A DNA stretch of 64,000 bases, taken from positions 9,075 to 73,074 of the forward strand of contig CAYUFB010000002.1 in the NCBI GenBank assembly GCA_964444125.1. Direction: 5' to 3'. Under the pieces are notes generated by a model. It was given only the letters and a program-made list of their open reading frames with translations. It had not been told where the DNA came from and searched no databases. Every line of letters begins with the position of its first letter. Position 1 is the first letter of the stretch. This DNA is from an uncultured Candidatus Saccharibacteria bacterium (GTDB lineage: Bacteria > Patescibacteriota > Dojkabacteria > B142 > JAFGMG01). A program made the position numbers and the translations under genes. This document shows positions 5,070 through 62,805 of the stretch, in pieces.

Positions 5070-5073
5070 GCTT

Positions 5074-6249: not shown

Positions 6250-6340
6250 TTAAACCTATTGATATATATATATTATATCTTAAGTGGGCATTACAGTTCA
6301 ATTTGTTTTCTCTTTTATACAATTTAAGCTAAAATCAAGT

Positions 6341-45588: not shown

Positions 45589-46704
45589 TTGAAAGTTCTT
45601 TGGAAAACAACACAATCTAATAAACCAATAGTTAGGCACAGGCCAAAACGTTTCTCATTTAGGCCGAATATCAAGCCAAGGATCAAAATTGACAAAAGAA
45701 GCGCGGGTAGATTTAGAAGAAAGCTTACAATTTTTACTCCACTTTTGCGTATTATCAAGTCCAATTTTCAATATGTTTTGATTGTTTTTTCTTTGCTTAT
45801 TATCGGGTTGTTTTTTTATGGGATCTTTCAGACAAATGTATTTGATGTCAAAAAGATTAGAATAGAGGGGGTTGAAAATGTGGATAGGGAAAGATTGGCT
45901 GAAGTTGTCGGTAAGTATAAGGATAGAAACATCTATTCAATAAATCTATCGGATATTGAGGACGAGGTTTTGAATTCCTCTGTTTATATAAAAAATGTCT
46001 ATGCTAGAAAACAATTGCCTTCCACAATTATCATTGAAATTAAAGAAAGGTATCCAACTCTTGTTATTCTAAATTTTGATGGTGTGTATCTTATCGATGC
46101 AGAAAACATTGTAACTTCAAACCCTATAAATCAATCGATAGATTTTAGTGAGGACGAATGGTACGTCTATCATACAAATTCACTTGATAATTTGATTATC
46201 AAAAATAGGATAATGGCTAATTTGAAAGAGGGAGATCCGGAATTTGACGAAGAGTCGTTTGATTATGAAAATTATGATGTTACCATCAAGCAACGGATCA
46301 AAAACGAAATAAAGCAGGAGATGGATCAGGCTATTGCTGCGCATTTCTCATCTCTTGAACAGGTAGTCAATGAAAGTGAGTATGCAGGACTTCCAAGAGT
46401 CTATTTTTATGATGGTGGTAGCTACAATCAAGAAGATAGGTTAGTGCTTGATCAGATCACTGATGTAGAAAAAGTGGTCAAATATTTTGAGAGGCTTGAT
46501 AGGTATTCAATCACAAAAATTGCCTGGGTGACCAAATTTAGCTTGAAAGTAGAAACCTTAGAAGGTAAGATATTTATGTTTGGAGATAATAGAGATATTG
46601 ATAAGCAGATAGACGACCTTGATGTGATACTTGTCGAACTGTCCTTAAGTGGCAAAGATTTCACAACAATCAATCTCCAAAGTGAAATCATTGGGGTTAA
46701 ATAA
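45589..46704 (+). CDS. ftsQ: Cell division protein FtsQ/DivIB (POTRA domain).
   Basis: Basic N-terminus, single TM helix, the POTRA segment VKKIRIEGVENV...NIYSINL, and synteny with ftsA-ftsZ. Confidence 0.72.
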   Translation: MKVLWKTTQSNKPIVRHRPKRFSFRPNIKPRIKIDKRSAGRFRRKLTIFTPLLRIIKSNFQYVLIVFSLLIIGLFFYGIFQTNVFDVKKIRIEGVENVDRERLAEVVGKYKDRNIYSINLSDIEDEVLNSSVYIKNVYARKQLPSTIIIEIKERYPTLVILNFDGVYLIDAENIVTSNPINQSIDFSEDEWYVYHTNSLDNLIIKNRIMANLKEGDPEFDEESFDYENYDVTIKQRIKNEIKQEMDQAIAAHFSSLEQVVNESEYAGLPRVYFYDGGSYNQEDRLVLDQITDVEKVVKYFERLDRYSITKIAWVTKFSLKVETLEGKIFMFGDNRDIDKQIDDLDVILVELSLSGKDFTTINLQSEIIGVK

Positions 46705-46721
46705 TATACAATTTTTTTATT

Positions 46722-47663
46722 TTGAGTATGAAAAAATATTTGTGTTTATTGTTGATATTGATAGTGGTTGGGTTCGGATCATTTGCAAATATGGTTTTGG
46801 CACAGGAGGCGTCTGATATAATACGGCTAACTTGTACTGAAATCTATGGGAAAAACTTAGAAAGACTTGAATGTAGCGATGATTCAATCTGTAATAGTGA
46901 AAAAAGTTACTACTTGGATAATCATGATGGCAAGTGCGAGATCGCTGCTGGTGATTGTAGGCCAGGCTAACTTGTATGTAAAAATGCTGAATCTATACAA
47001 GGTTTTTTCGAATATTGTTGTGATACAAATCCATCATCTCTGTTTGATCCTAATAACACGAATATTCCTATTGAGGATAGGGTATCTTGTAATGATGATA
47101 AATTGAAAAAGTCAATTAGTGCTGAAAGTAGTCTTGATCAGGGGATGAAGGTAAATAATTGTAGGTCATTGTCTAGTGCAGAAGATGTAAACAATATTAC
47201 GAAATGCGATTTTGAACATTTTTGCTCAATTGATAATTCTCCATATTGTTGTGATTATACCCCACCAGGCACGCAAGTAGTAGATTCAGTCTCAGAAGAC
47301 TCATTTAAGTGGTGTAAGGATATGGATGGAGAAGAATTGCAGAGATGTTCGGAATGTATAGGAACAAGATCAAATCCAACAGGGGCGATATGGACGGAGC
47401 TTGGATGTATTGACCCATCTCCAGCAGGGATCATAACGAGGATATTCTAGATAGGTATAGGAATTATGGGAGGAGTGATAATAATCAGGTTGATACAGAT
47501 TTCGTTGTTATACTTGAAAGAAGATGCGCAGAGTATAGAGGAGGCAAGAGATATGCTAACAAGTTTGATAATGGGATTAATATTATTGGTAGGAGGAGTA
47601 GTGTTATTACAATTTGTGGGAGTAAATATCCTAGGACTTCCTGAGGGTTATCTTGGAGGTTAA
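46722..47663 (+). pseudogene. Decayed paralog of the hairpin-protein family. One reading frame is broken by an in-frame TAA (46968-46970) and an in-frame TAG (47448-47450).
   Basis: Signal peptide, Cys-rich ectodomain, the conserved NPTGAIWTELGCIDPSPAGIITRIF segment and the two-TM hairpin are all in one frame. TAG 47448 corresponds to CAG in the intact paralog at 59148. Confidence 0.6.
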
Positions 47664-47861: not shown

Positions 47862-49142
47862 ATGGCAAACAGAATAGTTACAGCGATAGATATTGGCTCT
47901 ACAAAGATTTGCACTACAATTGCTTCAATAGAAGAAGACAGGCAACCATCAGTAATTGGCGTTGCAAGTTATCCAAGTAATGGTATGAAGAAAGGCGTGG
48001 TGGTCAATATAGACGAAGCAATCAATGCAATAGCTTCATCTTTGGAGGCAGCAGAGAGAATGGCAGGGCTTACAGTTTCTTCAGTGTATATTTCCATAAA
48101 CGGCAAACATATTACAAGTACCAATAACAAAGGGGTTGTTGCTGTTGCGCAAGATGAGATAGTTACTGATGATGTGTTTAGGGCTATTGAGAGTGCAAGA
48201 ACGGTATCAATACCTCCTTCAAGAGAGATATTGCACGTTATCCCTAGAGAATTTATTGTTGATGCGCAAGGGGGTATCAAAGATCCAGTAGGGATGACAG
48301 GTACCAGGCTTGAGGTTGATGCTCATATAGTATCTGCAACTAGCACCTCTTTGCATAACTTGATTAAATGTGTGCAACAATTAGGTCTTAAGGTTGAAGA
48401 TGTTGTTTTTAGCGGATGGGCAGCTGCAACAAGCGTATTAACTGCAACAGAAAAAGAACTTGGAGTTACATTGCTTGATATCGGTGGTGGTACAACTTCA
48501 ATTACAACTTTTGTCGAGGATGCTATTACATATAGTGGATGCATTCCTTTTGGAGGTACTAACGTAACTAGTGATTTGGCTATTGGACTTCGGGTATCAT
48601 TAGAAGATGCAGAGAGAATCAAGTTGAACACAGAAGAACTGATGAGAAGTTCTGCAAGAAGAAGAACTGAAGATAAAGAAAAAGATGAAGAAAAATCCAA
48701 AAAGCAAAGCGATATTATCGATATTAGTTCACTAGAAGTTGAAGGAATGAAAACTATTTCAAGAAAAATGTTTGAAGATATTATTGAGGCTAGATTAAGT
48801 GAAATATTTGATCTTATTATTGATCAAGTAGAACAATCTGATAATGAGATCAAATTACCAGCAGGTATTGTTCTTACTGGTGGAGCAGCTTTGATCCCAG
48901 GCATTACAACTATTGCAAAGAAAGTTTTTGGGGTACCTGCAAGAGTGGGCTATCCGAAAGGACTTGAAGGCTTGATTGATGAAATCAATAGCCCTGCTTA
49001 TGCAGTAAGTCAAGGTCTGATTCTTTATGGATCACAGGATGAATCAGGTGGCAGAAACTTAGGTATCTCAGGAAGTGTTGGAGACAAGGGTGATGGATTT
49101 GTATCCAAGATTGGAAGTTTCTTTAAAAATTTATTGCCATAA
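47862..49142 (+). CDS. ftsA: Cell division protein FtsA.
   Basis: Actin-like ATPase with AIDIGSTKICT and DIGGGTT motifs; 426 aa. Confidence 0.9.
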   Translation: MANRIVTAIDIGSTKICTTIASIEEDRQPSVIGVASYPSNGMKKGVVVNIDEAINAIASSLEAAERMAGLTVSSVYISINGKHITSTNNKGVVAVAQDEIVTDDVFRAIESARTVSIPPSREILHVIPREFIVDAQGGIKDPVGMTGTRLEVDAHIVSATSTSLHNLIKCVQQLGLKVEDVVFSGWAAATSVLTATEKELGVTLLDIGGGTTSITTFVEDAITYSGCIPFGGTNVTSDLAIGLRVSLEDAERIKLNTEELMRSSARRRTEDKEKDEEKSKKQSDIIDISSLEVEGMKTISRKMFEDIIEARLSEIFDLIIDQVEQSDNEIKLPAGIVLTGGAALIPGITTIAKKVFGVPARVGYPKGLEGLIDEINSPAYAVSQGLILYGSQDESGGRNLGISGSVGDKGDGFVSKIGSFFKNLLP

Positions 49143-49227
49143 GCTTGAACAAAACGACGAAATTGTCTAGACTATGTGTAGTTTCGAGACAGAGAATTTA
49201 TAAATTAATGTTTAATAAATATAATCA

Positions 49228-50409
49228 ATGCTAGTCAAACCTCAAACAACAAATCTTGCCAAAATCAAAGTAGTAGGAGTAGGTGGAGGTGGTGGAAATG
49301 CGATAAATAATATGATTGCAAACTATGATATTGATGGAGTTGAATTTATTGCCGTTAATACTGATGCACAGGCTTTGGCAAATTCAAATGCAGAGGTTAA
49401 ACTTAGAATCGGGGAGGAGACAACAAGAGGACTTGGTAGTGGTGGTAACCCTGAGATAGGCAAAAAGGCTGCTGAAGAGAGCATTGATATGTTGCATGAG
49501 CATTTAGCTGGTGCTGATATGATATTTATAACTGCAGGTATGGGTGGCGGGACAGGTACAGGCGCTAGTCCAGTTGTTGCAGGTATTGCCAAAAACCTTG
49601 GTGCACTTACAGTATCAATTGTAACAAAACCCTTTGATTTTGAAGGAAAAAGGAGAATGGATACAGCCTTAAAAGGTATTGCAGATTTGAAAGATAAAGT
49701 AGATACGCTTATCGTTGTTCCAAATCAAAAACTTATTGATACGATGGAAAGAAATTTAACATTTCTGGAAGCGATGAAACAAGCGGATGATGTACTATCA
49801 CATGCTGTCAAAAGTATTTCGCAGCTTATCACTCAAGCTGGACTTATCAATGTGGATTTTGCTGATGTCAGGTCAGTTATGACAAATGCAGGTACCGCTC
49901 TTATGGGGATGGGTACTTCTAAAGGTGAGGATAGAGCACTCCAAGCTGCAAAGTCTGCTACCTCAAGTCCTTTACTTGAAGTTTCAATTGATGGAGCAAC
50001 TGGAGTATTGTTTAATGTGCTTGCTGGCAAAGATCTTGCTTTATATGAAGTTGATGAGGCAGCGAAATATATATCATCAGTTGTATCGCCTACAGCAAAC
50101 GTGATCTTTGGGGCACAAATTGATGAGAGTCTTGAAGATCAACTTCAAATTACAGTTATGGCAACAGGATTTGAGACTCATAATACAGATTCTTCTGGAG
50201 TGATCAATACTTCCAAATCAAGGTCTGGCTCTAGAGATATCTCTGTTGATATGGTAGGAGATGATGATTATAAACAGACAAAACCTAGAGTTCAATCTGG
50301 ATATGTTTTTCCTGAAGAGGAAAGTGCTTTTTCTGCCCGTGAGATCAAAGATGAGGAAGAAGAAGATTTGGATACTCCTTCATTTTTGCGAAGACGAAAG
50401 AAATATTAA
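49228..50409 (+). CDS. ftsZ: Cell division GTPase FtsZ.
   Basis: GVGGGGGNAINNM tubulin signature, GGTGTG, and a C-terminal acidic tail. Confidence 0.95.
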   Translation: MLVKPQTTNLAKIKVVGVGGGGGNAINNMIANYDIDGVEFIAVNTDAQALANSNAEVKLRIGEETTRGLGSGGNPEIGKKAAEESIDMLHEHLAGADMIFITAGMGGGTGTGASPVVAGIAKNLGALTVSIVTKPFDFEGKRRMDTALKGIADLKDKVDTLIVVPNQKLIDTMERNLTFLEAMKQADDVLSHAVKSISQLITQAGLINVDFADVRSVMTNAGTALMGMGTSKGEDRALQAAKSATSSPLLEVSIDGATGVLFNVLAGKDLALYEVDEAAKYISSVVSPTANVIFGAQIDESLEDQLQITVMATGFETHNTDSSGVINTSKSRSGSRDISVDMVGDDDYKQTKPRVQSGYVFPEEESAFSAREIKDEEEEDLDTPSFLRRRKKY

Positions 50410-50427
50410 TTAAGTTCAGGTATAAAT

Positions 50428-51510
50428 ATGAGCACTGCTGAATCAACTCCTGATCCAAGTTTGGCTATTCAAGAAGCGCCGGGATTGGATATTGTAGCGC
50501 CTCCAGAGATACCAGTATCTTCAGTAAATCCTCGAATTGAGACGCATTCAGCAACAACTCAGATTGGATCTCGGACTGCAATAAAATATATTGATAGATC
50601 AGATATGCCAGCTGCAGAAGCAGAAAGAGCCCTAAAGGTAAATTTGGCGCTAACAAAACACGCTGTGATTTCTGATCAAGATATTGCCAATGCACTTGAT
50701 AAAGAAATGGTAAAAAAAGAGTTGATGAGGCTTGACCGCGGTGCGACAATAATTGATCGAATAAAAGAGAGTGTAACAATGCCAGATTTCAAAGATAAGC
50801 TCAAAAAGCTCGCTTGGAATGGTTTGAAATATGGCTATTGGGGATTTTTTGCATATGGAGTACTTACAGGTACAAGCCCTATTGGAGTAGTTAAAGATAT
50901 TGTCAGTATACCTGGTAGAATAGGGGATTTGGTTAATACGGGTGCAGACAACTTAATTAGCTTTCTTGGTTTGGAATCTAAGCCTGCGGGAGGTCCCCAG
51001 AATACATCAGGCGACATACTTCAGTCAAAGATTCCATCTGGAAGACTATTTGATACGCCGGTATTTGATGATGATGGAGAAATGACTAATAAAGGTGGGA
51101 CATTTTTCAATCTGTTTAAGCCACTTTTGGGAAAGGATCTAGCAACTTCATTGACAAAAACAGTAGGTACACCTTTTGTCGGAATATTTGGTTCTCTTGC
51201 ACAAAATACGAAGTATCCTGTTGAAGGGAAGTGGGGACCTTTTTTGGCTTATCCAGCGGTTTATTATGGAGGTAAGAAGCTTGGTCTATGGAATGAATTA
51301 TATACAAGACTTAAAGGAGATAGTACAGGTAACTTAAATCAAATGAAGAGACAAGAAATTGAAGCATTGAAAGAAAAAGCAAGAAATGAACTACTCTCAG
51401 GAAACTGGGAAGGTTATTCAGAGATTAGACTTGCCATTGATAATATAGGTGAAAGATATAAAGGAATTGAAAATCAATTAATTCGCCAACGTAGGGCTTT
51501 AGTGGCATAA
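50428..51510 (+). CDS. Hypothetical protein downstream of ftsZ.
   Basis: 360-aa ORF, 18 nt after the ftsZ stop. Confidence 0.5.
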   Translation: MSTAESTPDPSLAIQEAPGLDIVAPPEIPVSSVNPRIETHSATTQIGSRTAIKYIDRSDMPAAEAERALKVNLALTKHAVISDQDIANALDKEMVKKELMRLDRGATIIDRIKESVTMPDFKDKLKKLAWNGLKYGYWGFFAYGVLTGTSPIGVVKDIVSIPGRIGDLVNTGADNLISFLGLESKPAGGPQNTSGDILQSKIPSGRLFDTPVFDDDGEMTNKGGTFFNLFKPLLGKDLATSLTKTVGTPFVGIFGSLAQNTKYPVEGKWGPFLAYPAVYYGGKKLGLWNELYTRLKGDSTGNLNQMKRQEIEALKEKARNELLSGNWEGYSEIRLAIDNIGERYKGIENQLIRQRRALVA

Positions 51511-51517
51511 CAAATTT

Positions 51518-51982
51518 ATGTTAAATCTAGTTGTATTAGAACAATTAATCAAATTTAGTATCCCTGATAAATCATTGCAGGATAGGTATATCAAGGGGAT
51601 CTCTGCTGCAATTCAGGATCTTTTTTTCAATTTGTTGAGTATCTTTCTAATTGGGTCTGTCAAAGACAGATTAGCGCTAGAGGGGTTTATTGACCTAGTC
51701 AATAAGTTAGAAGAAGATTTTGATCCAACAGATATGGAAAGAACCAGAGATTGGTTAGAAACAAATATAGATCTAGATACGGATGCTTTTATGGATGAAT
51801 ATATAAGTAGGGTAGATAAAATGCAGCTAGACCTTATCAAAATCTTCTCAAAGAATATAACAGAAGAGCAAAAAATAGAATTAATTAATATAATTGATAA
51901 ACAATTAATAGAATTAGAAAAGAACAGAGAAGAAGTTGATACGATGAAAGAAGCCCTAGAGGTTTTAAGATTTAATCAATAG
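51518..51982 (+). CDS. Hypothetical acidic protein.
   Basis: 154-aa ORF, co-directional with ftsZ. Confidence 0.45.
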   Translation: MLNLVVLEQLIKFSIPDKSLQDRYIKGISAAIQDLFFNLLSIFLIGSVKDRLALEGFIDLVNKLEEDFDPTDMERTRDWLETNIDLDTDAFMDEYISRVDKMQLDLIKIFSKNITEEQKIELINIIDKQLIELEKNREEVDTMKEALEVLRFNQ

Positions 51983-52844
51983 GTCTTGCAATAGCTACAA
52001 ATCTTTTTGCATTATTCCCATTTGGGTAACAGGTAAAAAGGGTCAGTGTAGATTTGTTCTTTTGTCCTGTGATGATTGATACATCTTCTGGCTTGACGAT
52101 TTTGGTTTGCACAACTCTGTATTTATGGGTTTGGCCTTCGATTTCTATGCTTACCTCATCTCCAATCTTGATTTCACTTAGTTTCGAGAAGGCGGCCGTG
52201 ATATCTTTGGTCCTAGAATAATAATCTCCTCCAGCACTGTGTCCATATATAACAATATTATTATTAATATCGGAAATAGGAAGGCTCGTACCTTTGAAGT
52301 GGGCTAGAGCACCTTTTAGGGCTTCTTGATATGCGCTTTCAACTCCACTTTCCACATTTGGTTTTACGGGTAGGGAGTTTAATTCCAATGAAGGGATTGA
52401 AATTTTGAAATTGTTTTTGTATTCAAGGCTGACAGGGTCATTTTGCAATACATGTTGAGATAGGGCGTCTTTGGTCAATTCCTTAAAATATTCAGATCCC
52501 GGGTTTGAAAGATATGTCTCTTTGGGTCGTATTGAATCTCCTTTGACAAGTTCCGGTCTACCACTTTCATAATAACCAGAAATCTCTCTTGCTCTCTGTT
52601 TCATTTCAGGAAAGATCTGCCTGGAAAGGATTATGCTGCCTGCAATGATAAACAATGAAGGGATCAAAATCCTTGCAAGCGTTGAAGTTTTTATCAAGTT
52701 ATTGAAATCATTTCGAATACCCACAAGCAGATCCCATAATGTCGTTGGTGGGATTTCTTCTTTTTCGATTTCAATTTCTCTACTATAAATCTCTCCGGGG
52801 TCACGAAATTTCACAGCTCTTTTTTTGTAACTCTTTAGAGGCAT
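51972..52844 (-). CDS. Sortase-family transpeptidase, second copy, with a TM anchor.
   Basis: IVIYGHSAGG (His), TLTLFTCYP (TLxTC Cys) and a downstream Arg. Confidence 0.8.
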   Translation of the reverse strand: MPLKSYKKRAVKFRDPGEIYSREIEIEKEEIPPTTLWDLLVGIRNDFNNLIKTSTLARILIPSLFIIAGSIILSRQIFPEMKQRAREISGYYESGRPELVKGDSIRPKETYLSNPGSEYFKELTKDALSQHVLQNDPVSLEYKNNFKISIPSLELNSLPVKPNVESGVESAYQEALKGALAHFKGTSLPISDINNNIVIYGHSAGGDYYSRTKDITAAFSKLSEIKIGDEVSIEIEGQTHKYRVVQTKIVKPEDVSIITGQKNKSTLTLFTCYPNGNNAKRFVAIARPID

Positions 52845-53034
52845 TAGCGTTTTAAGTAAATAATTTTTAATATTGTACTAGATATTGGTGTGTTACGCCA
52901 AGAAAATAAAGGGGGGTACTTATTGTCAAATTGCTTGTAAGCTCTGGGGGATAGTGTTAGAATCCATTAGATTTTTTCACTGAATGGTTTTTTCAGTGAA
53001 TTTTTTGTTATTTCTACTAAACAATTTTATCATT

Positions 53035-54132
53035 ATGGCTATTAATCCTAAGATTAAGCAAAGCGTACAGTCTCTTGTTGATATGGGACTCAGGCAGGGA
53101 TATCTTACACAAGACGATATTTTAGAAGTTTTTCCCGAAGTTGAAGAAGATATGAAATTATTGGAATACATCGTTATCCAATTGCAAGATTCTGAGGTAG
53201 AAATAATTGAGCCAACTGTTGATGAAGAAATTCCTGTTGCACCAAAGCCAAGTCAATTATCATTTGAACAGAAGATCCAAATTCTTAAAAAAATTCGCTC
53301 TCATGTGAGTACTGATCCAATTAGGGCATATTTACATGAGATAGGTAGAATTCCATTGTTAAATGCAGAAGAGGAAGTGATCTTGGCCAAGAGAATAGAA
53401 AAAGGAGATGAAGAGGCTCGAGAACTTTTAACAACAGCAAATTTGAGACTTGTTGTCTCAATTGCCAAAAAATATGCCAAAAGAGGTTTGGATTTACTTG
53501 ATTTAATTCAGGAGGGTAATATCGGACTGATGAGAGCAGTGGAGAAATTCGAATACAGAAAAGGATTTAAATTCTCAACATATGCAACCTGGTGGATCAG
53601 GCAGGCCATAACCAGAGCTATTGCTGATCAAGCTAGGACAATTCGAGTGCCAGTACATATGATCGAAACAATCAACAAATTAAGTAAGGTCAATTCTGAA
53701 CTTAGTGCCAAACTTGGGCGAAAGCCTAATCATCAAGAACTAGCAGAAGCTTTAGAAATTGATGTAGATAAAGTACATGAGATTATCCGTATTGCGCAAA
53801 GACCGGCTTCACTTGAAGCGCCTATTGGAGAGGAGAAAGATAGCAAGCTTGAGGATATTATCGCCGATGAATATAGCGCGTCTCCATCAGATATTGCGAC
53901 TTGGTCGTTTTTGCGTAATCAAATAAATGAGATACTTACAGGTCTAACTGATAGAGAAAGGAAGGTATTAGAGTTGCGATTTGGGTTGAAAGATGGAGTA
54001 TCTAGGACACTTGAAGAAGTCGGACATGAATTTAAAGTAACAAGAGAACGTATTAGACAAATAGAAGCAAAAGCTTTAAAGAGACTCAAAAGCGATGAAG
54101 TTGCTCAAGCATTGAAAGATTATCTTAAGTAG
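53035..54132 (+). CDS. rpoD: RNA polymerase primary sigma factor. ATG 53035 is the likely start.
   Basis: Region 1.2 [14 protein letters not shown], region 2 [37 protein letters not shown], and region 4 [20 protein letters not shown]. Confidence 0.9.
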
Positions 54133-54136
54133 TTTT

Positions 54137-55213
54137 TTATACGTATTTTGCTTGATAAACTTTGAGTACTGTTATAAATAGTACCACAATCAACGGTCCG
54201 TATAATAATCCCATCACTCCAAAGACTTTCAATCCGCCAAGAATAGAAAACGCAAGAAGCAATGGATTGATGCTGGATTTGGCATTAGCAAGTTGCGTTC
54301 TAAGCAATGAATCAATTCCATTCGTCATTGCAAGTCCAATTCCAAATAAAACTAGTGCTTTGATCACTTCTCCAGAAATCAAAAGGTAAATACTTGCTGG
54401 AATCCATACAATACCTGAGCCAATTGGGATTATAGAGAACAAAGCAATCATCATGCCCCAAAATACCGGAGCCTCTAGACCAAGAATCCAGAAAGCAAAT
54501 CCACCGATGATTCCTAACCCAAATGCAACAACAAAAGTCCCCTTAATTATTGCATTGGAGGTCTCAACGAAATTTTTGATAAATAGTTTATCAACATTGT
54601 CATCGAGCGGACTTAGATCCACAATTGCTTTGTACAATCTTGGGCGAAGTGAAAACAAAGAGAAAATCGATATAAGTAGAAGAGAGGCTTGTGTCACAAG
54701 GGATAAAGTCTTTGAGACACTTCCTTTTAGCCCGTTAACAATAGTATTTAGAAAACTTTCCGAAAATTTGATCGCAAATTGTTGTACTTCTTCGTTAGTT
54801 ATTTGGTTTTCGGGATTTGAACTTACTTTGGAGATTAATTCATTTACCTTTTCAAGTCCAACGCTGTATTCTCCAATCAAATCGTGTTCTTGCCAAAATC
54901 CTTCTACTTTGCCAACAAGATTATTTGCCTGAAATACTACGATTATAGAAATAACAATTATGGGGATCACAACGGTCAAAATAATACTCAGACCCGCTAT
55001 CAATGATGCAAGCTTTTGGCTTTTTAGTTTTCTGACCAAGAATTCGTACCAAGGACTAAATATCTCGACTAGTATCAATGAAAAAAATATCACTCCAAGA
55101 TAGGGGGATATGACATATGCAAATCCTACAAAGAGGATAGCTAAGACCATTAGAAAGAAAAACTCGGTTAAATTCTTTTTGTTAAACATTTTGTATAAAT
55201 TAATTATAGTCAA
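54137..55213 (-). CDS. AI-2E family (PerM/UPF0118) transporter.
   Basis: 358 aa with about 8 TM helices and the AI-2E topology. Confidence 0.7.
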   Translation of the reverse strand: MTIINLYKMFNKKNLTEFFFLMVLAILFVGFAYVISPYLGVIFFSLILVEIFSPWYEFLVRKLKSQKLASLIAGLSIILTVVIPIIVISIIVVFQANNLVGKVEGFWQEHDLIGEYSVGLEKVNELISKVSSNPENQITNEEVQQFAIKFSESFLNTIVNGLKGSVSKTLSLVTQASLLLISIFSLFSLRPRLYKAIVDLSPLDDNVDKLFIKNFVETSNAIIKGTFVVAFGLGIIGGFAFWILGLEAPVFWGMMIALFSIIPIGSGIVWIPASIYLLISGEVIKALVLFGIGLAMTNGIDSLLRTQLANAKSSINPLLLAFSILGGLKVFGVMGLLYGPLIVVLFITVLKVYQAKYV

Positions 55214-55286
55214 AGTCTACATTTTTATTATCAAATCCGCAAGTTTGTTCGAAGAAATTTGTGCTTGAAAAACTAAATACTGGTTA

Positions 55287-55670
55287 TTGAATCAAAGCTA
55301 TGTTAGCATGAGAAAAGGAAAACTTATGAACATGATTTTGGATTTTTTTAAAAAATATATTTTTGGATTTTTTGCGTGGTGGTATTTAGTCAAAGGCCGT
55401 GAGGTGGTTGATTATTTTTCTCGAACGATTCTGAAATATTTCGTTAGATTGAATATTGGGCCAATGCTTGGGAACCTCTTTGCTCCAATGTTCCAAGACA
55501 AATCACTTACGGGTAGGTTTATTGCATTTCCAATAAGATTGATTTGGGGTCTTGGGGGATTGATTATTGAATTAATAATAATCGCTATTGGTTTAGTCTT
55601 TCTGCATATATATTTCCTTTTGCCAATAGCAGTCATTTATCAGATAGTTACATTTGTAGTGCTTAAATGA
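55287..55670 (+). CDS. Small polytopic membrane protein, first gene of the operon. The start may be ATG 55326.
   Basis: Hydrophobic helices; its stop overlaps the Clp-like start by 4 nt (ATGA). Confidence 0.5.
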   Translation: MNQSYVSMRKGKLMNMILDFFKKYIFGFFAWWYLVKGREVVDYFSRTILKYFVRLNIGPMLGNLFAPMFQDKSLTGRFIAFPIRLIWGLGGLIIELIIIAIGLVFLHIYFLLPIAVIYQIVTFVVLK

Positions 55671-58243
55671 AGATAGTTAACAAAAAATTAAAAATTGGTA
55701 AATACAAGGAAATGGAGGTTTTTGTTGATTGGGCATACCTTCAAAAGGGTAGAGGACTTAGAAAAAAAGAAGATCTACTGCAACTTGCTTTTGGGCGGTT
55801 CTTGTTTGTTATTGCTGTTATAGCAATGACAATTATAACTATTGCCCAAATATCACTTGGTAATTTCATTGTTTTTGAGGCAATCAAAAACGACTCACAA
55901 ATTAGTTTGGTCTTTTGGCTTGTTTTAGCTTTGTTTCTTTATGCTTCGTATCTACTTCGTGATAGGTCCAAGTTTTTTGATACTCTGGATCTGAAGGCAT
56001 TGACTAAATTGGCAAAAGATATTGAAGATAATAATAGCCCAAAAGAAGTTGAAATTCTGGATTTCGTCGATTATGACGTATTAAATACCTTAGATAAATT
56101 GCTTGAGAATAATCAGGAAAATATTTATGAGAATTTAATGATTGATTTACTTGAATTACAAGATGTTGGTCAGTTAATCAACAGGCTTGGGATTCAAAAA
56201 GAAATATTGCTGAACGAAATTGGGCAATTAGATATGACAATAGAAGGTGATAAGGTTTATCAAATTAATAAACTGCTATATCAATCATTTGTCATGGGGC
56301 TTGATTATAAATTTAGTTTTATTGGTGAATGGATAATTTTCTTGAAATTAGCTCTCGATGAATATAACCAGGTTTTTATGAAATTAGGAATTACAAAAGG
56401 AACTTTATTATCTGTTCTGGAGTGGACAAAGGCGCAGGCAATGGGTAATAGATATAGGAAATTATGGAAATATAAAGCATCTCTAAAACCAAGAAGCACT
56501 GTCAATCGAAGCTATACATCAGCACACACACCTACTTTAAATAAATATTCTAGAGATTTGACCAGGGAAGTAATTGATGGAGAATTTAGTTATGCGTTAA
56601 GTAGAGAGACTGAAATTGCTGATGTGATTAGGTATTTGAAGCCAGAAAAAGGTGCTGTATTGTTACTTGGTGAAGCTGGTGTAGGAAAGACCACAATCCT
56701 AAAAAGTATCGCAGTGAAGATGGTGGTAGAGGATGTCCCTTCAAACCTGAAAGATAAGAGACTTGTGGAATTTGATTTTCACCGTGCCGTGACGCAAGCA
56801 CTAGATACCTCAAAGCTTAGAGCTTTAATTGAAGATATTATAGTTGAGGTTGGCAAATCCAAAAATGTTGTATTGGTTATTGACGACTTGGATGAATTGA
56901 TTGGATTGAAAGATGATATTTCAGATGAAATTGTCTCAACTTTGCATAAAGCGTTGTCTAATAATTCAATTAGTCTTGTTGCTACTTCATCAAATGAGGG
57001 GTATATAAAATCTATCAAGCCAAATACGCAGCTAGCAAATATTTTTGATGTTGTGCGTATTGATGAGCCATCACCAGAAATTGCTCTACAGATAATATTT
57101 GACGAGAGATCTAAGCTTGAGGATATGTACAATATCAAAATTCAATTTGATGCCTTGAAATCTGCTATTGAGCTTACTGATAGATATGACAAAACAAGGG
57201 TCTTCCCATTTAAGGCAATTGACACATTAGAAGATGCTTGTGTCTTGGCTCTTGAAGAGGGACTAGGTTTTGTTTCAGCTTCTCAAGTTGAGGCTGTGGT
57301 TAGCAAAGATGCAGGCATCAAGGTCGGGAGACTTGATGAGACTGAGGGGCAGAAACTACTGCAACTTGAAGATAGGATGAAACGCAGAGTGATCGGGCAG
57401 GATAACGCTATAAAAGCAGTAGTTTCTGCCCTGAAAAGAGCTAGGGCAGGTCTAGTATCAAAAAATAAACCTCTTTCGTCATTCCTGTTTTTTGGCCCAA
57501 CCGGTGTGGGCAAAACTGAAGTGGCGAGAACTTTGGCTGCTGTTTATTTTGGTGATGAGAAATTGATTACTAGAATTGATATGTCTGAATTTCAAGAAGA
57601 GAAAAATGTCTCAAGGTTGATTGGTTCGTCTGATGAAGATGGTTTTGTGGGAGGGCAATTGACTGAAAAGGTGAGAGAGCATCCGTTTTCTCTAATTCTC
57701 CTGGATGAGATTGAGAAAGCAAACCCCAAAGTCTTAGATTTATTCTTGCAGGTTTTAGATGAAGGTCATATCAAGGATGGTCTAGGAAGGGTCGTGGATT
57801 TCAAAAATACTATTATTATTGCGACGTCAAATATTGGATCTAAATCTATTGCTGATAGTTTCTCAAAAGAAATTTCATATGAAAAAACTGAAAGAATGGC
57901 GAAGGAAGAATTGAAAAAGTATTTAAGGATTGAATTTATTAACAGATTTGATAAAGTGATAATGTTTAAACCATTATCCAAAATTGAGATAGAAAAAATT
58001 GCTGGATTGATGATGAACCAGGTCGTAGATAGATTGAAAGAGCAAGGGATAGGTTTGAAATTTGAAGCTCAATTATTAAGCCAGCTTGCACAAAAAGGTT
58101 ATAGTCTAATGTATGGAGCAAGAGAAATGCGAAGGGTTATTCAAGATGAGGTCGAGACGAGAATTGCTGATATGATAGTGGCAGGCAAGCTTAAATCAGG
58201 GGATACTTTAACTATTAAGTCCTTGGAGGAATTTGAAGTATGA
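55667..58243 (+). CDS. Membrane-anchored ClpC/ClpB-like double AAA+ ATPase: two N-terminal TM helices, Clp_N-like repeats, then D1 and D2.
   Basis: D1 LLLGEAGVGKTTI with VVLVIDDLDE. D2 FLFFGPTGVGKTE, IDMSEF, ILLDEIEKANPKV, sensor GAREMRRVIQ, and PTLNKYSRDLT. Hydrophobic helices lie at about residues 45-95. Confidence 0.8.
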   Translation: MKIVNKKLKIGKYKEMEVFVDWAYLQKGRGLRKKEDLLQLAFGRFLFVIAVIAMTIITIAQISLGNFIVFEAIKNDSQISLVFWLVLALFLYASYLLRDRSKFFDTLDLKALTKLAKDIEDNNSPKEVEILDFVDYDVLNTLDKLLENNQENIYENLMIDLLELQDVGQLINRLGIQKEILLNEIGQLDMTIEGDKVYQINKLLYQSFVMGLDYKFSFIGEWIIFLKLALDEYNQVFMKLGITKGTLLSVLEWTKAQAMGNRYRKLWKYKASLKPRSTVNRSYTSAHTPTLNKYSRDLTREVIDGEFSYALSRETEIADVIRYLKPEKGAVLLLGEAGVGKTTILKSIAVKMVVEDVPSNLKDKRLVEFDFHRAVTQALDTSKLRALIEDIIVEVGKSKNVVLVIDDLDELIGLKDDISDEIVSTLHKALSNNSISLVATSSNEGYIKSIKPNTQLANIFDVVRIDEPSPEIALQIIFDERSKLEDMYNIKIQFDALKSAIELTDRYDKTRVFPFKAIDTLEDACVLALEEGLGFVSASQVEAVVSKDAGIKVGRLDETEGQKLLQLEDRMKRRVIGQDNAIKAVVSALKRARAGLVSKNKPLSSFLFFGPTGVGKTEVARTLAAVYFGDEKLITRIDMSEFQEEKNVSRLIGSSDEDGFVGGQLTEKVREHPFSLILLDEIEKANPKVLDLFLQVLDEGHIKDGLGRVVDFKNTIIIATSNIGSKSIADSFSKEISYEKTERMAKEELKKYLRIEFINRFDKVIMFKPLSKIEIEKIAGLMMNQVVDRLKEQGIGLKFEAQLLSQLAQKGYSLMYGAREMRRVIQDEVETRIADMIVAGKLKSGDTLTIKSLEEFEV

Positions 58244-59358
58244 GAAAGGTTTTTATTTTTGTTGCATTGCTTTTACTCATATCCTTCACTGGATTAATAA
58301 AGATTAAGGCTCAAAACAGCATATTTAACAGGAATTCTACACATGCTTCTTATGCGACATATGTTTTTGATTGTGCGGGAAGCGAGATTGAATTAGCGGT
58401 GCCAAATGTTGTGCCTTCTTCTTATGATAGTTTTGAATATTATGTTGAAAGGAGTGCAGGAGATGAAATAGTTGTCTTAATATATAAGCAATTAAATAGT
58501 TCTCCTCAGTTGGATGCGATAAGATCTTTTTCGACTTCTGGTACCGGAACTATTCCGTTAGACATATTGGATTACCAAACCGGTAGTATTCAATATAGAG
58601 TTGGTATGGCTATGAATGAGGTCTGTACTCTTCAAGGTAGCACGGATACAACCGTTTCTATTACTATTACAGACAATATAAAAACCACTTCGGACTGTCC
58701 TAATGGTGAATTTCTCCAGATTTCTAATGGAAGAGTTGAAAATAGTAGGGTAATTGTTGATATAAATGCTTGTGTTGATAGTTCGTCAAGGTATTCATTT
58801 ATAGATTTAACAGATAATCCTACCTCAATCATGGATGAAATAGGCACTGGAGAAATTGCAAGAGAATTGACAATAAGGAAATACGATAGTCCTATACGAG
58901 TAATTGTTGAAGGATATATAAATGGTTCTATGATTAAAAGATATGCAATTGACTTAAACGTTACAACAGAAATAATTGAATCGGTCTCGGAAGACTCATT
59001 TAAAGGATGTGGAGAGATGGGGGAGGATGAGAAGGCAGCGTGTATAAGATGTGTAGGTACTAAATCAAATCCAACAGGGGCGATATGGACGGAGCTTGGA
59101 TGTATTGACCCATCTCCAGCAGGGATCATAACGAGGATATTCCAGATAGGTATAGGAATTATGGGAGGAGTGATAATAATAAGGTTGATACAGATATCAT
59201 TATTGTATTTAAAAGATGATGCACAGAGTTTGGAAGAAGCGAGAGATATGTTGACAAGTTTGGTAATGGGATTGATATTGTTGGTAGGAGGGGTAGTGTT
59301 GTTACAATTTGTAGGAGTCAATATCTTGGGCCTACCTGAAGGATATCTTGGAGGTTAA
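58240..59358 (+). CDS. Array member A (372 aa): signal peptide, ectodomain, conserved Cys-containing juxtamembrane segment, and a C-terminal two-helix hairpin.
   Basis: The start overlaps the Clp-like stop (ATGA). C-terminus is IFQIGIGIMGGVIIIRLIQISLLYL-KDDAQSLEEARDMLTS-LVMGLILLVGGVVLLQFVGV. Confidence 0.6.
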   Translation: MRKVFIFVALLLLISFTGLIKIKAQNSIFNRNSTHASYATYVFDCAGSEIELAVPNVVPSSYDSFEYYVERSAGDEIVVLIYKQLNSSPQLDAIRSFSTSGTGTIPLDILDYQTGSIQYRVGMAMNEVCTLQGSTDTTVSITITDNIKTTSDCPNGEFLQISNGRVENSRVIVDINACVDSSSRYSFIDLTDNPTSIMDEIGTGEIARELTIRKYDSPIRVIVEGYINGSMIKRYAIDLNVTTEIIESVSEDSFKGCGEMGEDEKAACIRCVGTKSNPTGAIWTELGCIDPSPAGIITRIFQIGIGIMGGVIIIRLIQISLLYLKDDAQSLEEARDMLTSLVMGLILLVGGVVLLQFVGVNILGLPEGYLGG

Positions 59359-59421
59359 TGCTATTAGCTTGACCCCGAGTACTTGTAACTGTAGACTGAT
59401 AATTAAATATTAAATTGATCA

Positions 59422-59790
59422 ATGATGTCATTTCAAAGATTGGTTGTTTTCATGCTAATTTCATTAAGTTATCTAGCTCCTATGGCTGTTATGGCAGAGA
59501 CATTGGACACTTCAATAGGTACTATCCAAAGTCCATTGGGAGATACTGATATGTTTGGGCTCATTGAGAGACTTGTAGGATATGTTAGGCCAATTATTGC
59601 AATCACATTCCTTTTTGTAATTATTTATGGAGGTTATACCAGGATGACCGCAGCAGGGGATCCGGAAAAAGAGAAGAAGAGCAATTCAATTCTTACAGCA
59701 GGGGTAATTGGTTTTGCTATTATTGTCCTCGCTCCTGCGGTAGTTAGATTAGTTAGCTCACTTATAGGAATACAAGGAGATGTTGTCTAA
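59422..59790 (+). CDS. Array member B: a bare 122-aa VirB2/TrbC-like pilin-type subunit (signal peptide plus two-helix hairpin).
   Basis: Signal peptide ...APMAVMA; TM1 IIAITFLFVIIYGGY, loop TRMTAAGDPEKEKKSN, TM2 AGVIGFAIIVLAPAVV. Confidence 0.6.
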   Translation: MMSFQRLVVFMLISLSYLAPMAVMAETLDTSIGTIQSPLGDTDMFGLIERLVGYVRPIIAITFLFVIIYGGYTRMTAAGDPEKEKKSNSILTAGVIGFAIIVLAPAVVRLVSSLIGIQGDVV

Positions 59791-60535
59791 ATATACAAAA
59801 ATATTAAGCTTTATCACCGTACTAGTTGCGGGTTATTTTTTGTTTGTTACTGGCGTTCAGGCACAGAATTTTTCTGAATGTATTAGGGATAAAACAGTTA
59901 ATCAAACTGGTTATGTCTGCAGTTTGTGTGGTGATTCTGCCATAGATGCCGAAAGGGAATCAAATTGTGATAAACGTGTAATTGAAGGATATAAATGGGA
60001 TGCAAGTACCTGTAGTTGTATAAACACAAAGAGTAGTTGTTCTGGGATTTCTGAAAATGTTCAAAAGAGTCGCAAAGTTCAATGTTTTGCCAATGGGAAT
60101 ATGTGGAATTATTCAAGTTGTGAATGTATAAATAGTCAAACAGCAATGCCAATTGTTATGTCGCCTACCGTTGATAATGGATTAGGTAATGGATTGGACG
60201 ATACTACTAATAGTATCATCGGTATTTTTGATCGGGTCTTTTTCAAGACTAATTTCGATGGATCTGTCGACAACGTCTCTGAACTTATCAGAATGGCGTT
60301 TATTATTATTTTCATGATTATTGCTATTGTGGCATTTTTCTTAGGTATTTATGGAATGTATCTCTATAGTACAGCATTTGATGATGACGAGAAGGTTTCC
60401 AAAGCACAGAAGATTTTCAAAGATGCTTTGATTGGACTATTTATTGCTATTGCAGGTATTGTGCTTGTGCAGGTAGTCGCGATATTTTTGGGAGTAGATA
60501 GTGCTGATCTTTTTACTTTTAATGTAAGCAATTAA
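59780..60535 (+). CDS. Array member C (251 aa): signal peptide, Cys-rich ectodomain (12 Cys), and a C-terminal two-helix hairpin.
   Basis: AAGGAG ribosome-binding site inside the end of B. Hairpin IIFMIIAIVAFFLGIYGMYLYS-TAFDDDEKVSKAQKIFKD-ALIGLFIAIAGIVLVQVVAIF. Confidence 0.6.
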   Translation: MLSKYTKILSFITVLVAGYFLFVTGVQAQNFSECIRDKTVNQTGYVCSLCGDSAIDAERESNCDKRVIEGYKWDASTCSCINTKSSCSGISENVQKSRKVQCFANGNMWNYSSCECINSQTAMPIVMSPTVDNGLGNGLDDTTNSIIGIFDRVFFKTNFDGSVDNVSELIRMAFIIIFMIIAIVAFFLGIYGMYLYSTAFDDDEKVSKAQKIFKDALIGLFIAIAGIVLVQVVAIFLGVDSADLFTFNVSN

Positions 60536-60545
60536 AATAGAATTT

Positions 60546-61127
60546 ATGAAGAAAATTTTTTTCATTTTCGCAATAATTTTTATTTCTCTTGGCTCGTTGG
60601 GGCAGGTATTTGCACAGACTCAAGAGGAGGTTCAAGAAAATGGGGTTAATATTCAAGTTGGAGAGAATACCTTAAATCTAGATATCTTTGACCCAACGGG
60701 AGGTTGGGGGAATGTAGGAATTCTTGCACTATTGGGTTTGATTGGACAATTAATTTTTGGTTTACTTGTAGTCGTTTGGATATTTATAGCTTTGCTATCT
60801 GGTTTGAAAATAGTAAGAAGTCAGGGCAAAGCAGAAGATATTGAATCTGGCACTGGAGCTATAGGCAATATGCTTAAAGGTATTACGTTTGGTCTCCTGT
60901 TTTTTGTAGCAGTGTCTGTTATTGGTATGATCACGGGTGCCGGCACTGTCTTTGAATGGTCTGATAATTTGCAGGAATGCTCATGTGAAGCATCAGTTGA
61001 AGGAACTCCTTGTTATACATATAAATTCCAGGCTGAGGCCAGTGTGGAAGAAGAAACTGTTTGGGCATGTGAGAGAGATCAGCATGGCTCAAAATTCGGC
61101 AAAGGATGGTTTTCTAGTTTGGATTGA
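60546..61127 (+). CDS. Array member D (193 aa): signal peptide, two-helix hairpin, and a C-terminal Cys-containing domain.
   Basis: GILALLGLIGQLIFGLLVVVWIFIALL-SGLKIVRSQGKAEDIESGTGAIGNMLKG-ITFGLLFFVAVSVIGMI. Confidence 0.6.
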   Translation: MKKIFFIFAIIFISLGSLGQVFAQTQEEVQENGVNIQVGENTLNLDIFDPTGGWGNVGILALLGLIGQLIFGLLVVVWIFIALLSGLKIVRSQGKAEDIESGTGAIGNMLKGITFGLLFFVAVSVIGMITGAGTVFEWSDNLQECSCEASVEGTPCYTYKFQAEASVEEETVWACERDQHGSKFGKGWFSSLD

Positions 61128-61179
61128 CTTTTGTTTGTTAAATCGTTATCCTGATTTTATATATTAATTTAAATTCAAA

Positions 61180-61731
61180 ATGAAAAAGTACCTTACAAAA
61201 GGAGCTTTGGTGTTAGTAGTTTCGTATTCGTTCGCTAATGTGGCATATGCACAAAGTCTTCTACCTGCATTTATGGATGAGTTTTTAAATGATTGGAATA
61301 ATACAAATTCTGTCGATAAGATTAGTGGATTTATCAGGCTTGCTTTGACACTTGCATTTGGTGTTGTAATCCTTGCTGCTGTAGCATATTCTATTATGGC
61401 TGCTATCAAATACATCAAGAGTCAAGGAGATGCTGGTCAAGTGGAAGAAGCGAACAAAGCTATCAAAGCAATATTTCAAGGAGTTGTAGCTATGTTTGTA
61501 GGTATTATTGGGGTTGTTTTGGTATTCTTCATATTCAATGTCGCTCTTCCAGATCCAAGTATACCTTCTATTTGTGTGAAATGTCCAGAAAGTAATACTT
61601 GTAGGGTTTGTAGTGAAGGTAAACAAGAAAAGGGTGGAACGGATTATGTTTTGTCGGGTAATCCAAAATCGCCAGCAACAGAAGATGAGTGTAATCCAAA
61701 AACAGATACTATAGATTGTGAAGATTATTAA
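61180..61731 (+). CDS. Array member E (183 aa): signal peptide, two-helix hairpin, and a C-terminal Cys-rich domain (10 Cys).
   Basis: LALTLAFGVVILAAVAYSIMAAI-KYIKSQGDAGQVEEANKAIKAI-FQGVVAMFVGIIGVVLVFFIF, then CVKCPESNTCRVCSEG. Confidence 0.6.
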   Translation: MKKYLTKGALVLVVSYSFANVAYAQSLLPAFMDEFLNDWNNTNSVDKISGFIRLALTLAFGVVILAAVAYSIMAAIKYIKSQGDAGQVEEANKAIKAIFQGVVAMFVGIIGVVLVFFIFNVALPDPSIPSICVKCPESNTCRVCSEGKQEKGGTDYVLSGNPKSPATEDECNPKTDTIDCEDY

Positions 61732-61761
61732 TTGTTTTGCTGGGTTAATTAAAGATAATAG

Positions 61762-62805
61762 GTGAAAGCAATTTTATCGGTTCGTTTTATAATCATATTT
61801 TTGTTAATTGCCTTCTTGCTGGTAGGTTCGGTTTTTGCTCAATTTGGCTCTGGCGATGAACCTGCCAGGCTTCGTGACCTTGAGCCTCTTTTGGTGCAAC
61901 TGATTTATGTGATATGGGCACTTGGTGGGATAATATTTACAGCTGCGTTGATGTTTATAGGGTTTCTCTACATGACAAGTGCTGGAGATCCTCAAAAACA
62001 AGAGGCTTTGAAGAAACGCGCGACAAATTGGCTTTTTGGACTGATTCTGTTTTTCGCGGGATACCCATTGGTGTTGACTGCGTACAATGTTTTAGATATA
62101 GGTCAATCAAATCCGGATTGTTATAAATCAGTTTCAACTCCTGGGTTTCATTTTTTCTTCCCCGATGTATGTACTGATCCACTAGAGGGAACAGAGTTTC
62201 TTGTTGGTCAAACGGTTCAGAAAGCAAATTTAACTGAAGAAGAATTTATACAGAAACTTATAGATGGAAAAAGATGTGTCTTAAATGATAAATATGCTCC
62301 CGTAGAAAGCTATATATTTTCAAAAGATGATTATAAATTGTATAAGTACAAAATGGAAAGCAATGGGAATTGCTTGAAATATGATATTGTAGTACGTAAT
62401 TCAGTAGATATGAGGAATAGAGAGTATTTATATGTTTTCAGAGATGGTAAAATATTTGAGGAAGATGGGACATTCTATGTTTACGGAGGCAACTGTAGTA
62501 ATGATGGTATAAAAAACACGGGCAGGCAAGATATGTGTTGTTTGGGTGATCAGGGAAAACATTTCGTTGTTCCTTCCAGGACAGCTTCTGAAAATGATGA
62601 GCAGGGAGGATCCAAACGTCAGTATGTCAGAATGCTTGATGGGACAATAACATATTTTTGGTATGATGCAAAAGGAAATGATATTGGTGCGTGTGATTGT
62701 GAAAGGGATGGAAATACAACTGGGAGTGGTACTACTTGTAAATCTTTTTCAGGTGTAAGAGTATCTTTAGATTTATCTAATATCAGTGGGGTCCAAGTCC
62801 CATAG
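61762..62805 (+). CDS. Array member F (347 aa): signal peptide, two-helix hairpin with a TSAGDPQKQE loop, and a large C-terminal Cys-rich ectodomain.
   Basis: LIYVIWALGGIIFTAALMFIGFLYM-TSAGDPQKQEALKKRATNW-LFGLILFFAGYPLVLTAY. At least 12 Cys lie downstream. Confidence 0.6.
   Translation: MKAILSVRFIIIFLLIAFLLVGSVFAQFGSGDEPARLRDLEPLLVQLIYVIWALGGIIFTAALMFIGFLYMTSAGDPQKQEALKKRATNWLFGLILFFAGYPLVLTAYNVLDIGQSNPDCYKSVSTPGFHFFFPDVCTDPLEGTEFLVGQTVQKANLTEEEFIQKLIDGKRCVLNDKYAPVESYIFSKDDYKLYKYKMESNGNCLKYDIVVRNSVDMRNREYLYVFRDGKIFEEDGTFYVYGGNCSNDGIKNTGRQDMCCLGDQGKHFVVPSRTASENDEQGGSKRQYVRMLDGTITYFWYDAKGNDIGACDCERDGNTTGSGTTCKSFSGVRVSLDLSNISGVQVP

Follow-up and report, generated by a model that had tools for sequence, protein, structure and literature searches.

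Probable recent gene conversion between two pilin-like anchor modules of a Candidatus Saccharibacteria genome

Introduction

The tufA and tufB genes of Salmonella and Escherichia coli, like rRNA operons, undergo concerted evolution by RecA-dependent gene conversion. Here, we describe a locus with a similar pattern in a stretch of 64,000 nucleotides (nt) from an uncultured Candidatus Saccharibacteria bacterium (GenBank assembly GCA_964444125.1, contig CAYUFB010000002.1, positions 9,075 to 73,074 of the forward strand), hereafter the window. Two paralogous genes in the window, one a pseudogene that follows ftsQ and the other an intact gene (gene A) that follows a gene for a ClpB-like protein, encode different N-terminal ectodomains and the same C-terminal module of ~126 residues. 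As in tufA/tufB and the rRNA operons, two dispersed paralogs in one chromosome are more alike within than between genomes, their tracts of identity are bounded by older divergence, and the outcome appears to be non-reciprocal. Unlike in tufA/tufB, homogenisation is confined to the C-terminal module here, and the ectodomain has been replaced or is unrelated; one partner has become a pseudogene, and the organism is an epibiont of the Candidate Phyla Radiation (CPR) with a reduced genome.

The locus can also be compared with the VirB2-like arrays of Patescibacteria, whose members share on average 25% and at most 54% identity (PMC12102498 = bioRxiv 10.1101/2025.01.22.634366). Multiple VirB2 paralogs are present in Anaplasma and Bartonella as well (cited in PMC12102498), and in Ca. 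Southlakia epibionticum the pilin series of the T4SS (type IV secretion system) cluster is essential for epibiotic growth (PMC10633639). Similar to these arrays, gene A heads a series of PF18895 genes and has a signal peptide, a two-helix hairpin, and a 'GD..K' loop. In contrast to them, two members at a distance of 11.7 kb share 87% identity over the module and 100% in its core, the modules in two sister lineages are 100% identical, and the module scores below the Pfam threshold and combines a four-Cys knob with a long N-terminal ectodomain. A full-text search found no literature that links gene conversion with VirB2-array Patescibacteria or Saccharibacteria.

Pseudogene cassettes serve antigenic variation in Neisseria (pilE/pilS), Anaplasma (msp2/p44), and Borrelia (vlsE). 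These systems resemble the present locus in that surface or pilin-type paralogs, a pseudogene among them, exchange sequence by gene conversion. However, they move the variable region, which has conserved sequence on both sides and many donors, whereas here the conserved region would have been moved, the homology is one-sided, and there are two copies. In the R64 shufflon, the C-terminal segments of PilV are rearranged by the Rci recombinase at sfx repeats. It shares with our locus a pilus-associated adhesin in which alternative variable parts are combined with a constant part, but it relies on a site-specific recombinase of its own and on short inverted repeats; the repeats described here are direct, lie 11.7 kb apart, span essential genes, and have no recombinase gene nearby.

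Results

A repeated module with a near-identical core

The two paralogs and their repeated parts are located in the window as follows:

46728–47663, + strand: ftsQ-adjacent paralog, a pseudogene here (signal peptide, Cys-rich ectodomain, and C-terminal module; 312-codon frame with two nonsense codons)
47283–47663, + strand: module copy 1, Cys-rich linker and helical hairpin, 126 codons plus stop (alignment, tblastn)
47369–47485, + strand: putative conversion tract, copy 1, minimum 117 nt (maximum 47369–47500 if the tract predates the silent C/A at 47486)
58240–59358, + strand: gene A, intact ClpB-adjacent paralog of 372 amino acids (orphan ectodomain, predicted to be beta-rich, and module)
58978–59358, + strand: module copy 2 (alignment, tblastn)
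59064–59180, + strand: putative conversion tract, copy 2 (alignment; 59064–59195 for the 132-nt version)

The segment 47283–47663 matches 58978–59358 in frame, without gaps and codon for codon, at a fixed offset of 11,695 nt in the window alignment. This confirms the claim of an earlier note on this DNA that a segment of ~380 nt is duplicated between the pseudogene and gene A. The repeat exists in two copies as claimed, but the in-frame partner of position 47283 is 58978 and not 58980; the 2-nt gap at the 5' end of a MAFFT alignment was an artefact of the latter coordinate. A repeat search found this pair to be the only long direct repeat in the window, with two copies, and a tblastn search with the encoded module agreed. 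The only repeats found between the two loci were D1, which is the 3' module, and D2, which is the 5' edge of that module.

The identity between the two copies changes in steps. It amounts to 30% at 47200–47282, where the sequences are unrelated, to 62% at 47283–47368, to 99.1% (116/117 nt) in the core at 47369–47485 = 59064–59180, and to 84% in the 3' flank at 47486–47663; past the shared TAA stop, it falls to 31%. Uniform divergence with no identical core, the outcome that would have spoken against the earlier alignment, was looked for, and these steps were found instead. Within the core, 79 and 37 nt match exactly on either side of the sole difference, T47448 versus C59143. Near-identity and a single T/C substitution had been noted before, but the length is 117 nt rather than ~105 nt, and the range given for the second copy (59078–59185) was ~5 nt off. 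When one silent C/A difference at 47486 is allowed, the tract extends to 47500 and comprises 132 nt with 2 differences.

Silent sites and the case for gene conversion

All 35 silently changeable codons of the core are unchanged between the copies, whereas about half of the 59 codons on its 3' side carry silent changes and 3–4 carry replacements. By the Nei-Gojobori method, the synonymous divergence (dS) is 0 in the core versus 1.39–1.56 in the 3' flank, where the nonsynonymous divergence (dN) is 0.026–0.029; the comparison inside and outside the core that the earlier note had proposed thus gave a clear contrast. In the whole repeat, 103 degenerate codons encode the same amino acid in both copies; 29 of them differ, and the longest unchanged run is 35. 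When the 29 changed codons were shuffled among the 103, an unchanged run of 35 arose in 1 of 100,000 permutations. Permutations at the nucleotide level and at third positions produced none (0/30,000 and 0/100,000, respectively). From independent draws on the codon usage of the genome, ~13 identical core codons are expected, compared with the 35 observed.

Because of this contrast at silent sites, the sharp borders, and the freedom of the same sequence to vary in a sister genome (see below), we consider it very probable that the core results from a recent non-reciprocal transfer, i.e., gene conversion, between paralogs 11.7 kb apart. The borders, the dS contrast, and the permutation test (P ~1e-5) bear out what had been proposed from the sequence at first reading, namely recent gene conversion or recombination between the copies.

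The following history would account for the pattern. First, well after the split of the lineages, one or more older events would have homogenised the module as a whole, and the copies would since have drifted to a dS of ~1.5. A short recent patch would then have copied 117–132 nt (47369–47485/47500 = 59064–59180/59195) from one copy onto the other. No part of the module is better conserved than the one that holds this patch (SNPTGAIWTELGCIDPSPAGIITRIFQIGIGIMGGVIII), and strand pairing would find the most residual nucleotide identity there. A later C-to-T change at 47448 would have introduced the TAG codon into the ftsQ-adjacent copy, where a TAA is found at 46968 as well. The two nonsense codons are:

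46968–46970, + strand: first in-frame stop, a TAA of the ectodomain that the repeat does not include (translation; also present in contig L021, described below)
47448–47450, + strand: second in-frame stop, TAG (gene A has CAG at 59143–59145)

Because the C-to-T change is the only difference inside the tract, the TAG is most likely younger than the patch. The 3' flank has a dN/dS of ~0.02, which is typical of strong purifying selection and suggests that, for the greater part of its history, the ftsQ-adjacent copy was functional. The earlier note had stated that the nonsense change is recent or that conversion is ongoing. A recent TAG is what we infer as well, but the second nonsense codon, the TAA at 46968–46970, lies outside the repeat and is not dated by the tract.

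Stop reassignment or read-through at the TAA and TAG was ruled out, as ftsQ and gene A themselves end in TAA. Since TAA is the ordinary stop of these genes, the segment is a pseudogene rather than a case of recoding. It contains no frameshift. Gene callers cut it into three open reading frames (ORFs) of 80, 101, and 65 amino acids, which have been deposited publicly as separate hypothetical proteins.

The two repeats are direct and enclose ftsA, ftsZ, a sortase gene, rpoD, and the ClpB-like gene, so that a crossover between them would delete these genes. As crossover products would lose essential genes, conversion would be the only outcome to persist.

Several points weigh against this interpretation. 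No relative at 85–98% average nucleotide identity was found, and the change is therefore not polarised; the donor and the state before conversion are unseen. A consensus or polishing artefact was excluded only indirectly, on the basis of contigs. Before the event, the flanks were only ~83% identical, with exact runs of <=15 nt, and would have been a poor RecA substrate; the event was thus presumably rare, or the initiating homology lay inside the present tract. Finally, the age of the TAG relative to the patch was deduced on the assumption that the tract is one continuous piece.

We infer rather than observe the route of recombination (RecA-type exchange inside one chromosome or between sister chromosomes, or else transformation by DNA of a sibling), the transfer's direction, and a selective favour for matching modules. 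Short patches are typical of transformation-mediated replacement, and DNA of a sibling or near-identical strain that was taken up and integrated ectopically could have provided the patch in place of intra- or sister-chromosome exchange. Saccharibacteria take up DNA through a com system, transform naturally, and integrate homologous DNA by recombination (PMC10633639). Ectopic repair with DNA from a sibling is therefore no less plausible than an event inside the chromosome; both routes yield the same identical tract, and we regard transformation as a possible source of the patch, with a fairly low probability.

Homogenised modules in sister lineages

The layout with one ftsQ-adjacent and one ClpB-adjacent gene is common to three lineages, including this genome. 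In the SRR28093593 lineage, both genes are intact; P0003 follows ftsQ (contig L006), and P0002 follows the ClpB-like gene and precedes the pilin array (contig L005). At the protein level, P0002 and P0003 do not differ in their last 97 residues (L005:10667–10957 versus L006:8013–8303). Over the module, 34 of their 93 degenerate codons are identical, compared with 33 expected by chance. Two further ideas about this pair were tried and rejected. Recoding for dissimilar codons as a way to avoid recombination would show as a depletion of identical codons, which is absent at 34 versus 33 expected. The apparent excess of amino-acid conservation fits ordinary strong purifying selection, as judged by a rough calibration with the divergence of RpoD and FtsZ.

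In the third lineage, the ectodomains of the ftsQ-adjacent P0004 and the ClpB-adjacent P0005 are unrelated, and the 375 nt that come next are 100% identical. This identity begins exactly at the module border, and a contig of a Saccharibacteria metagenome-assembled genome starts at that very base. Several other contigs of this lineage also end or start exactly at the repeat border. Tandem paralogs were found in two further, distant lineages. On L010 (Ga0123339_10007987; 2830–5151 and 5203–6759), different ectodomains are joined to modules with ~98% identical DNA, and the identity starts sharply at the codons of the Cys motif SCRSC. The tandem pair on L008 (3785–5044 and 5055–6233) has ~75% DNA identity. 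In the single-copy lineage L014, ftsQ and ftsA are adjacent, with nothing between them.

In a neighbour-joining tree and in identity matrices, the two modules of each genome pair together, i.e., they group by genome and not by locus. The C-terminal part of the module is 97%, 100%, and 100% identical within genomes but 62–72% identical between genomes. The pattern is one of concerted evolution of the modules at the two loci, with homogenisation that appears to have recurred across lineages. One ancestral duplication followed by repeated homogenisation of the module explains the layouts; the alternative would be three independent insertions into the gap between ftsQ and ftsA. Between the window and L005, RpoD is 92%, FtsZ 82%, and FtsQ 46% identical, and silent sites are saturated. 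The earlier view that the repeat does not reflect an ancient duplication therefore holds for the core only. The duplication itself is old, as its layout is common to two sister lineages whose housekeeping genes are saturated.

Ectodomains and the possibility of cassette variation

The pseudogene, P0002, P0003, and P0005 have one Cys-rich ectodomain pattern with detectable similarity; the ectodomain of the ftsQ-adjacent P0003 matches that of the pseudogene with E-values of 0.002–0.004 in a lenient BLAST search. P0006 and P0009 show the same pattern on MAFFT alignment only, with BLAST matches that are not significant. The ectodomains of gene A and P0004 are unrelated. Across lineages, ectodomains are thus replaced on a retained module, and the ectodomain type is not tied to the locus. 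The idea that the pseudogene ectodomain resembles only ClpB-adjacent ectodomains was weakened by the occurrence of the same Cys-rich pattern in the ftsQ-adjacent P0003. A whole-gene duplication followed by replacement of the ectodomain in gene A and P0004 would be the simpler history. A word-based search found no intact or closer orthologs of the pseudogene ectodomain, but it missed known fragments too, and their absence is therefore weak evidence.

It had also been suggested that the tract could shuffle ectodomains among paralogs and so produce antigenic or adhesin variation. The tract itself does not support this, as the patch lies wholly within the invariant anchor module and, apart from the stop, changes no amino acid. 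The related explanation of programmed cassette variation, with the pseudogene as a silent donor to the expressed gene A as in Neisseria pilS or Anaplasma msp2, has some support in the presence of a pseudogene and a paralog with a recombining segment, in ectodomain types that are not bound to a locus, and in contigs with crossed junctions (see below). Nevertheless, we consider it very unlikely. The homology lies only 3' of the variable region, the repeat search of the window found no shared DNA 5' of the ectodomains that would allow cassette exchange, and there are only two copies. Moreover, the tract carries invariant anchor sequence and no variable sequence. The positional counterparts of the pseudogene in the sister lineages (P0003 and P0004) are intact, which points to a decaying gene and not to a dedicated cassette. 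In addition, ectodomains would not be swapped by a single crossover at the module, which would lead to the loss or duplication of ftsA–clpB.

Constraint at the nucleotide level

Selection on the nucleotides themselves, through an RNA structure, a regulatory or protein-binding site, or the target of a recombinase, could also keep the core identical. As the amino-acid sequence of the module is most conserved where the tract lies, some extra similarity is expected there, but constraint on amino acids cannot fix silent sites. In the sister genome (SRR28093593), 23 of the 28.7 silent sites in the same 38 core codons differ between P0002 and P0003. Because these sites are randomised while the protein is identical, the core does not appear to be required at the DNA or RNA level. 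Its fold z-score of +1.1 indicates no RNA structure, no Rfam family matched in 45–64 kb of the window, and no recombinase or integrase family was present among the neighbours within ~10 kb. Furthermore, the DNA of the module region is only 69–73% identical between lineages (window versus L007 and L005 versus L007). A nucleotide-level element in the core was ruled out on the fold score, the Rfam result, and the silent sites of the sister, and such selection is a highly improbable explanation of the identity. Promoter or terminator function of the pseudogene region ahead of ftsA was considered separately and rejected, as consensus matches were no commoner than in shuffled sequences.

Sequence reliability and hybrid contigs

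Gene A is carried by contigs of 74–98 kb from two JGI metagenomes and an NCBI assembly. Contigs L001, L003, and L004 show no difference from the window, and in L002 a single nt is changed over 15 kb. Each of the three fragments into which the stops divide the pseudogene is recorded on 5–6 contigs (JGI, NCBI, and Logan), and five or more independent assemblies have this sequence with both in-frame stops. The fragment ending in '...CRPG' is represented by P0011 on 5 JGI/Logan contigs and by the shorter form P0012 on 1 NCBI contig; the fragment ending in '...ITRIF' (P0014) is found on 5 contigs. An independent Logan contig starts at window position 47456, inside the core, which is a break expected of a small-k assembler at a true repeat.

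Crossed junctions were observed in three contigs. L021 (GCA_030154545.1, JASEYN010220011.1, 950 bp) corresponds to window 46916–47368 joined to 59143–59560. It contains the 5' part of the pseudogene, a crossover inside the 79-nt run, and the 3' part of gene A, and it continues into the first pilin gene. Its gene-A part is 100% identical over 497 nt, and it is annotated as encoding an intact protein of 186 amino acids (P0015). Such a junction is as expected for a deletion of the 11.7 kb that hold ftsA–clpB or for an assembly chimera. In L019 (14–1264), the ectodomain of P0004 is joined to the pilin array, and in L020 (1–1668), ClpB and the ectodomain of P0005 are joined to the sequence after P0004 (both compared with L016 and L007). 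These two short contigs come from different samples, and their junctions lie at the 375-nt exact repeat. All three have the structure of deletion- or duplication-type crossover junctions and equally that of de Bruijn assembly chimeras.

Short-read metagenome assemblies mishandle repeats, and these three contigs would fit an assembly, binning, or polishing artefact in which gene A reads built the pseudogene consensus over the core, but we give this explanation almost no credence, because an assembler that jumps between copies stays on the other copy, as in L021, rather than switching back 117 nt later, contigs of 74–98 kb from different samples and pipelines have the same mosaic, and T47448, which lies inside the core and is specific to the pseudogene copy, recurs on 5 contigs.

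Structure and family of the module

The module of ~126 amino acids has three invariant Cys residues and a nearly invariant fourth, a WTE.GC.DPSP motif, and two hydrophobic helices connected by a short polar loop; an N-terminal hydrophobic leader can be read from the sequence. The AlphaFold (AF2) model from an alignment of 34 sequences has a predicted local distance difference test score (pLDDT) of 86 and consists of a small knob followed by a long hairpin (helices 47–78 and 82–112). The C-terminal 'GLPEGFLGG' (59329–59355 and homologs) is conserved, with a near-invariant Pro; it follows the second helix and is not a canonical LPXTG signal.

The gene A module matches the T4SS_pilin family (PF18895) with 14.8 bits, below the Pfam cut-off of 26.6. 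Matches at E<=1 were obtained for 10/10 relatives, with a best E-value among members of 7.7e-5; more distant members of the module family scored 20–23 bits, still below the cut-off, or had no match. The hhalign comparison of the module with the first pilin of the array was weak (probability 35%), and fold searches with the module model returned generic hairpins only. Given the sub-threshold Pfam scores, the weak hhalign result, and the generic fold matches, we did not file the module as a member of the pilin family and call it T4SS_pilin-like, which describes a weak resemblance. No solved structure is related to it by sequence.

In an exhaustive profile search, 6,636 representatives at E<=1e-3 (3,576 at E<=1e-10) carried the module C-terminally; most have 250–770 amino acids, and the representatives are clusters at 50% identity (~6,600). 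The family is thus large and is missed by Pfam. In proteins P0016–P0155, the module is always C-terminal and the ectodomains have roughly 100–650 amino acids. Family members with genomic context come from Saccharibacteria or from unclassified metagenome contigs, and scans of genomes and metagenomes with the module added only four loci.

Gene A and the surrounding loci

The remaining features of the two loci and of the interval between them are:

45589–46704, + strand: ftsQ (POTRA_1), upstream neighbour of the pseudogene (Pfam)
47862–58243, no single strand: genes between the direct repeats (Pfam families, ORFs)
59422–62805, + strand: five small or extended VirB2-like hairpin genes after gene A, of which 3/5 pass Pfam T4SS_pilin (PF18895)

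The pseudogene sits between ftsQ and ftsA/ftsZ (47862–50409). The genes between the repeats are ftsA, ftsZ, two unknowns, a sortase gene (- strand), and an rpoD-type sigma factor gene, followed by genes for an AI-2E permease (- strand), a small membrane protein, and a membrane-anchored ClpB-like AAA+ ATPase. The sortase gene (51972–52844, - strand) thus lies between the two paralogs. The small membrane protein gene (55287–55670) precedes the ClpB-like gene (55667–58243, + strand), whose product of 858 amino acids is a ClpB-type double AAA+ protein with N-terminal membrane segments and is encoded beside the pilin array in every lineage examined. It is a candidate partner ATPase for the pilin-like proteins. 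A scan of large ORFs, covering part of the ORFs in the window, revealed no VirB4-like ATPase.

The start of gene A overlaps the stop of the ClpB-like gene (ATGA). Homologs of gene A reach only the last 30–35% of the protein, and its ectodomain (58240–58977, residues 1–246) had no detectable homolog in a search of 5.8 billion proteins. A full-length model of gene A made without an alignment has a pLDDT of < 50 in the ectodomain and is unusable there; the beta-rich prediction is of low confidence. In every lineage, PF18895 genes directly follow the ClpB-adjacent family gene. SbcD-like (Metallophos) and SbcC-like genes come after the pilin array (62829–63950 onward) in all lineages. The window opens with dnaA (141–1595), which places the pilin array ~58–63 kb from the likely origin.

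Discussion

The patch itself is textbook molecular evolution, an ordinary case of gene conversion, and its value lies in the family pattern that it exposes. In at least 4 lineages, the anchors of paralogs in the same genome are kept alike while their ectodomains are replaced. The repeat also has practical consequences, as it breaks or mis-joins short-read assemblies at these loci, and annotators split the pseudogene into three spurious ORFs.

Since the pilin series is essential for epibiotic growth in cultivated Saccharibacteria (PMC10633639), the way in which these surface proteins remain compatible with their machinery while their exposed parts change bears on host attachment and host range. 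A bolder reading, to which we assign a low probability, is that the knob and hairpin form a common handle that has to match among the paralogs of one cell, e.g., for co-assembly or for use of the same T4SS-like machinery. Conversion would then spread changes of the handle, and the handle would anchor the grafting of new ectodomains, including those from transformed DNA. If true, this would be a CPR-specific route by which a family with thousands of unannotated members diversifies its host-binding adhesins.

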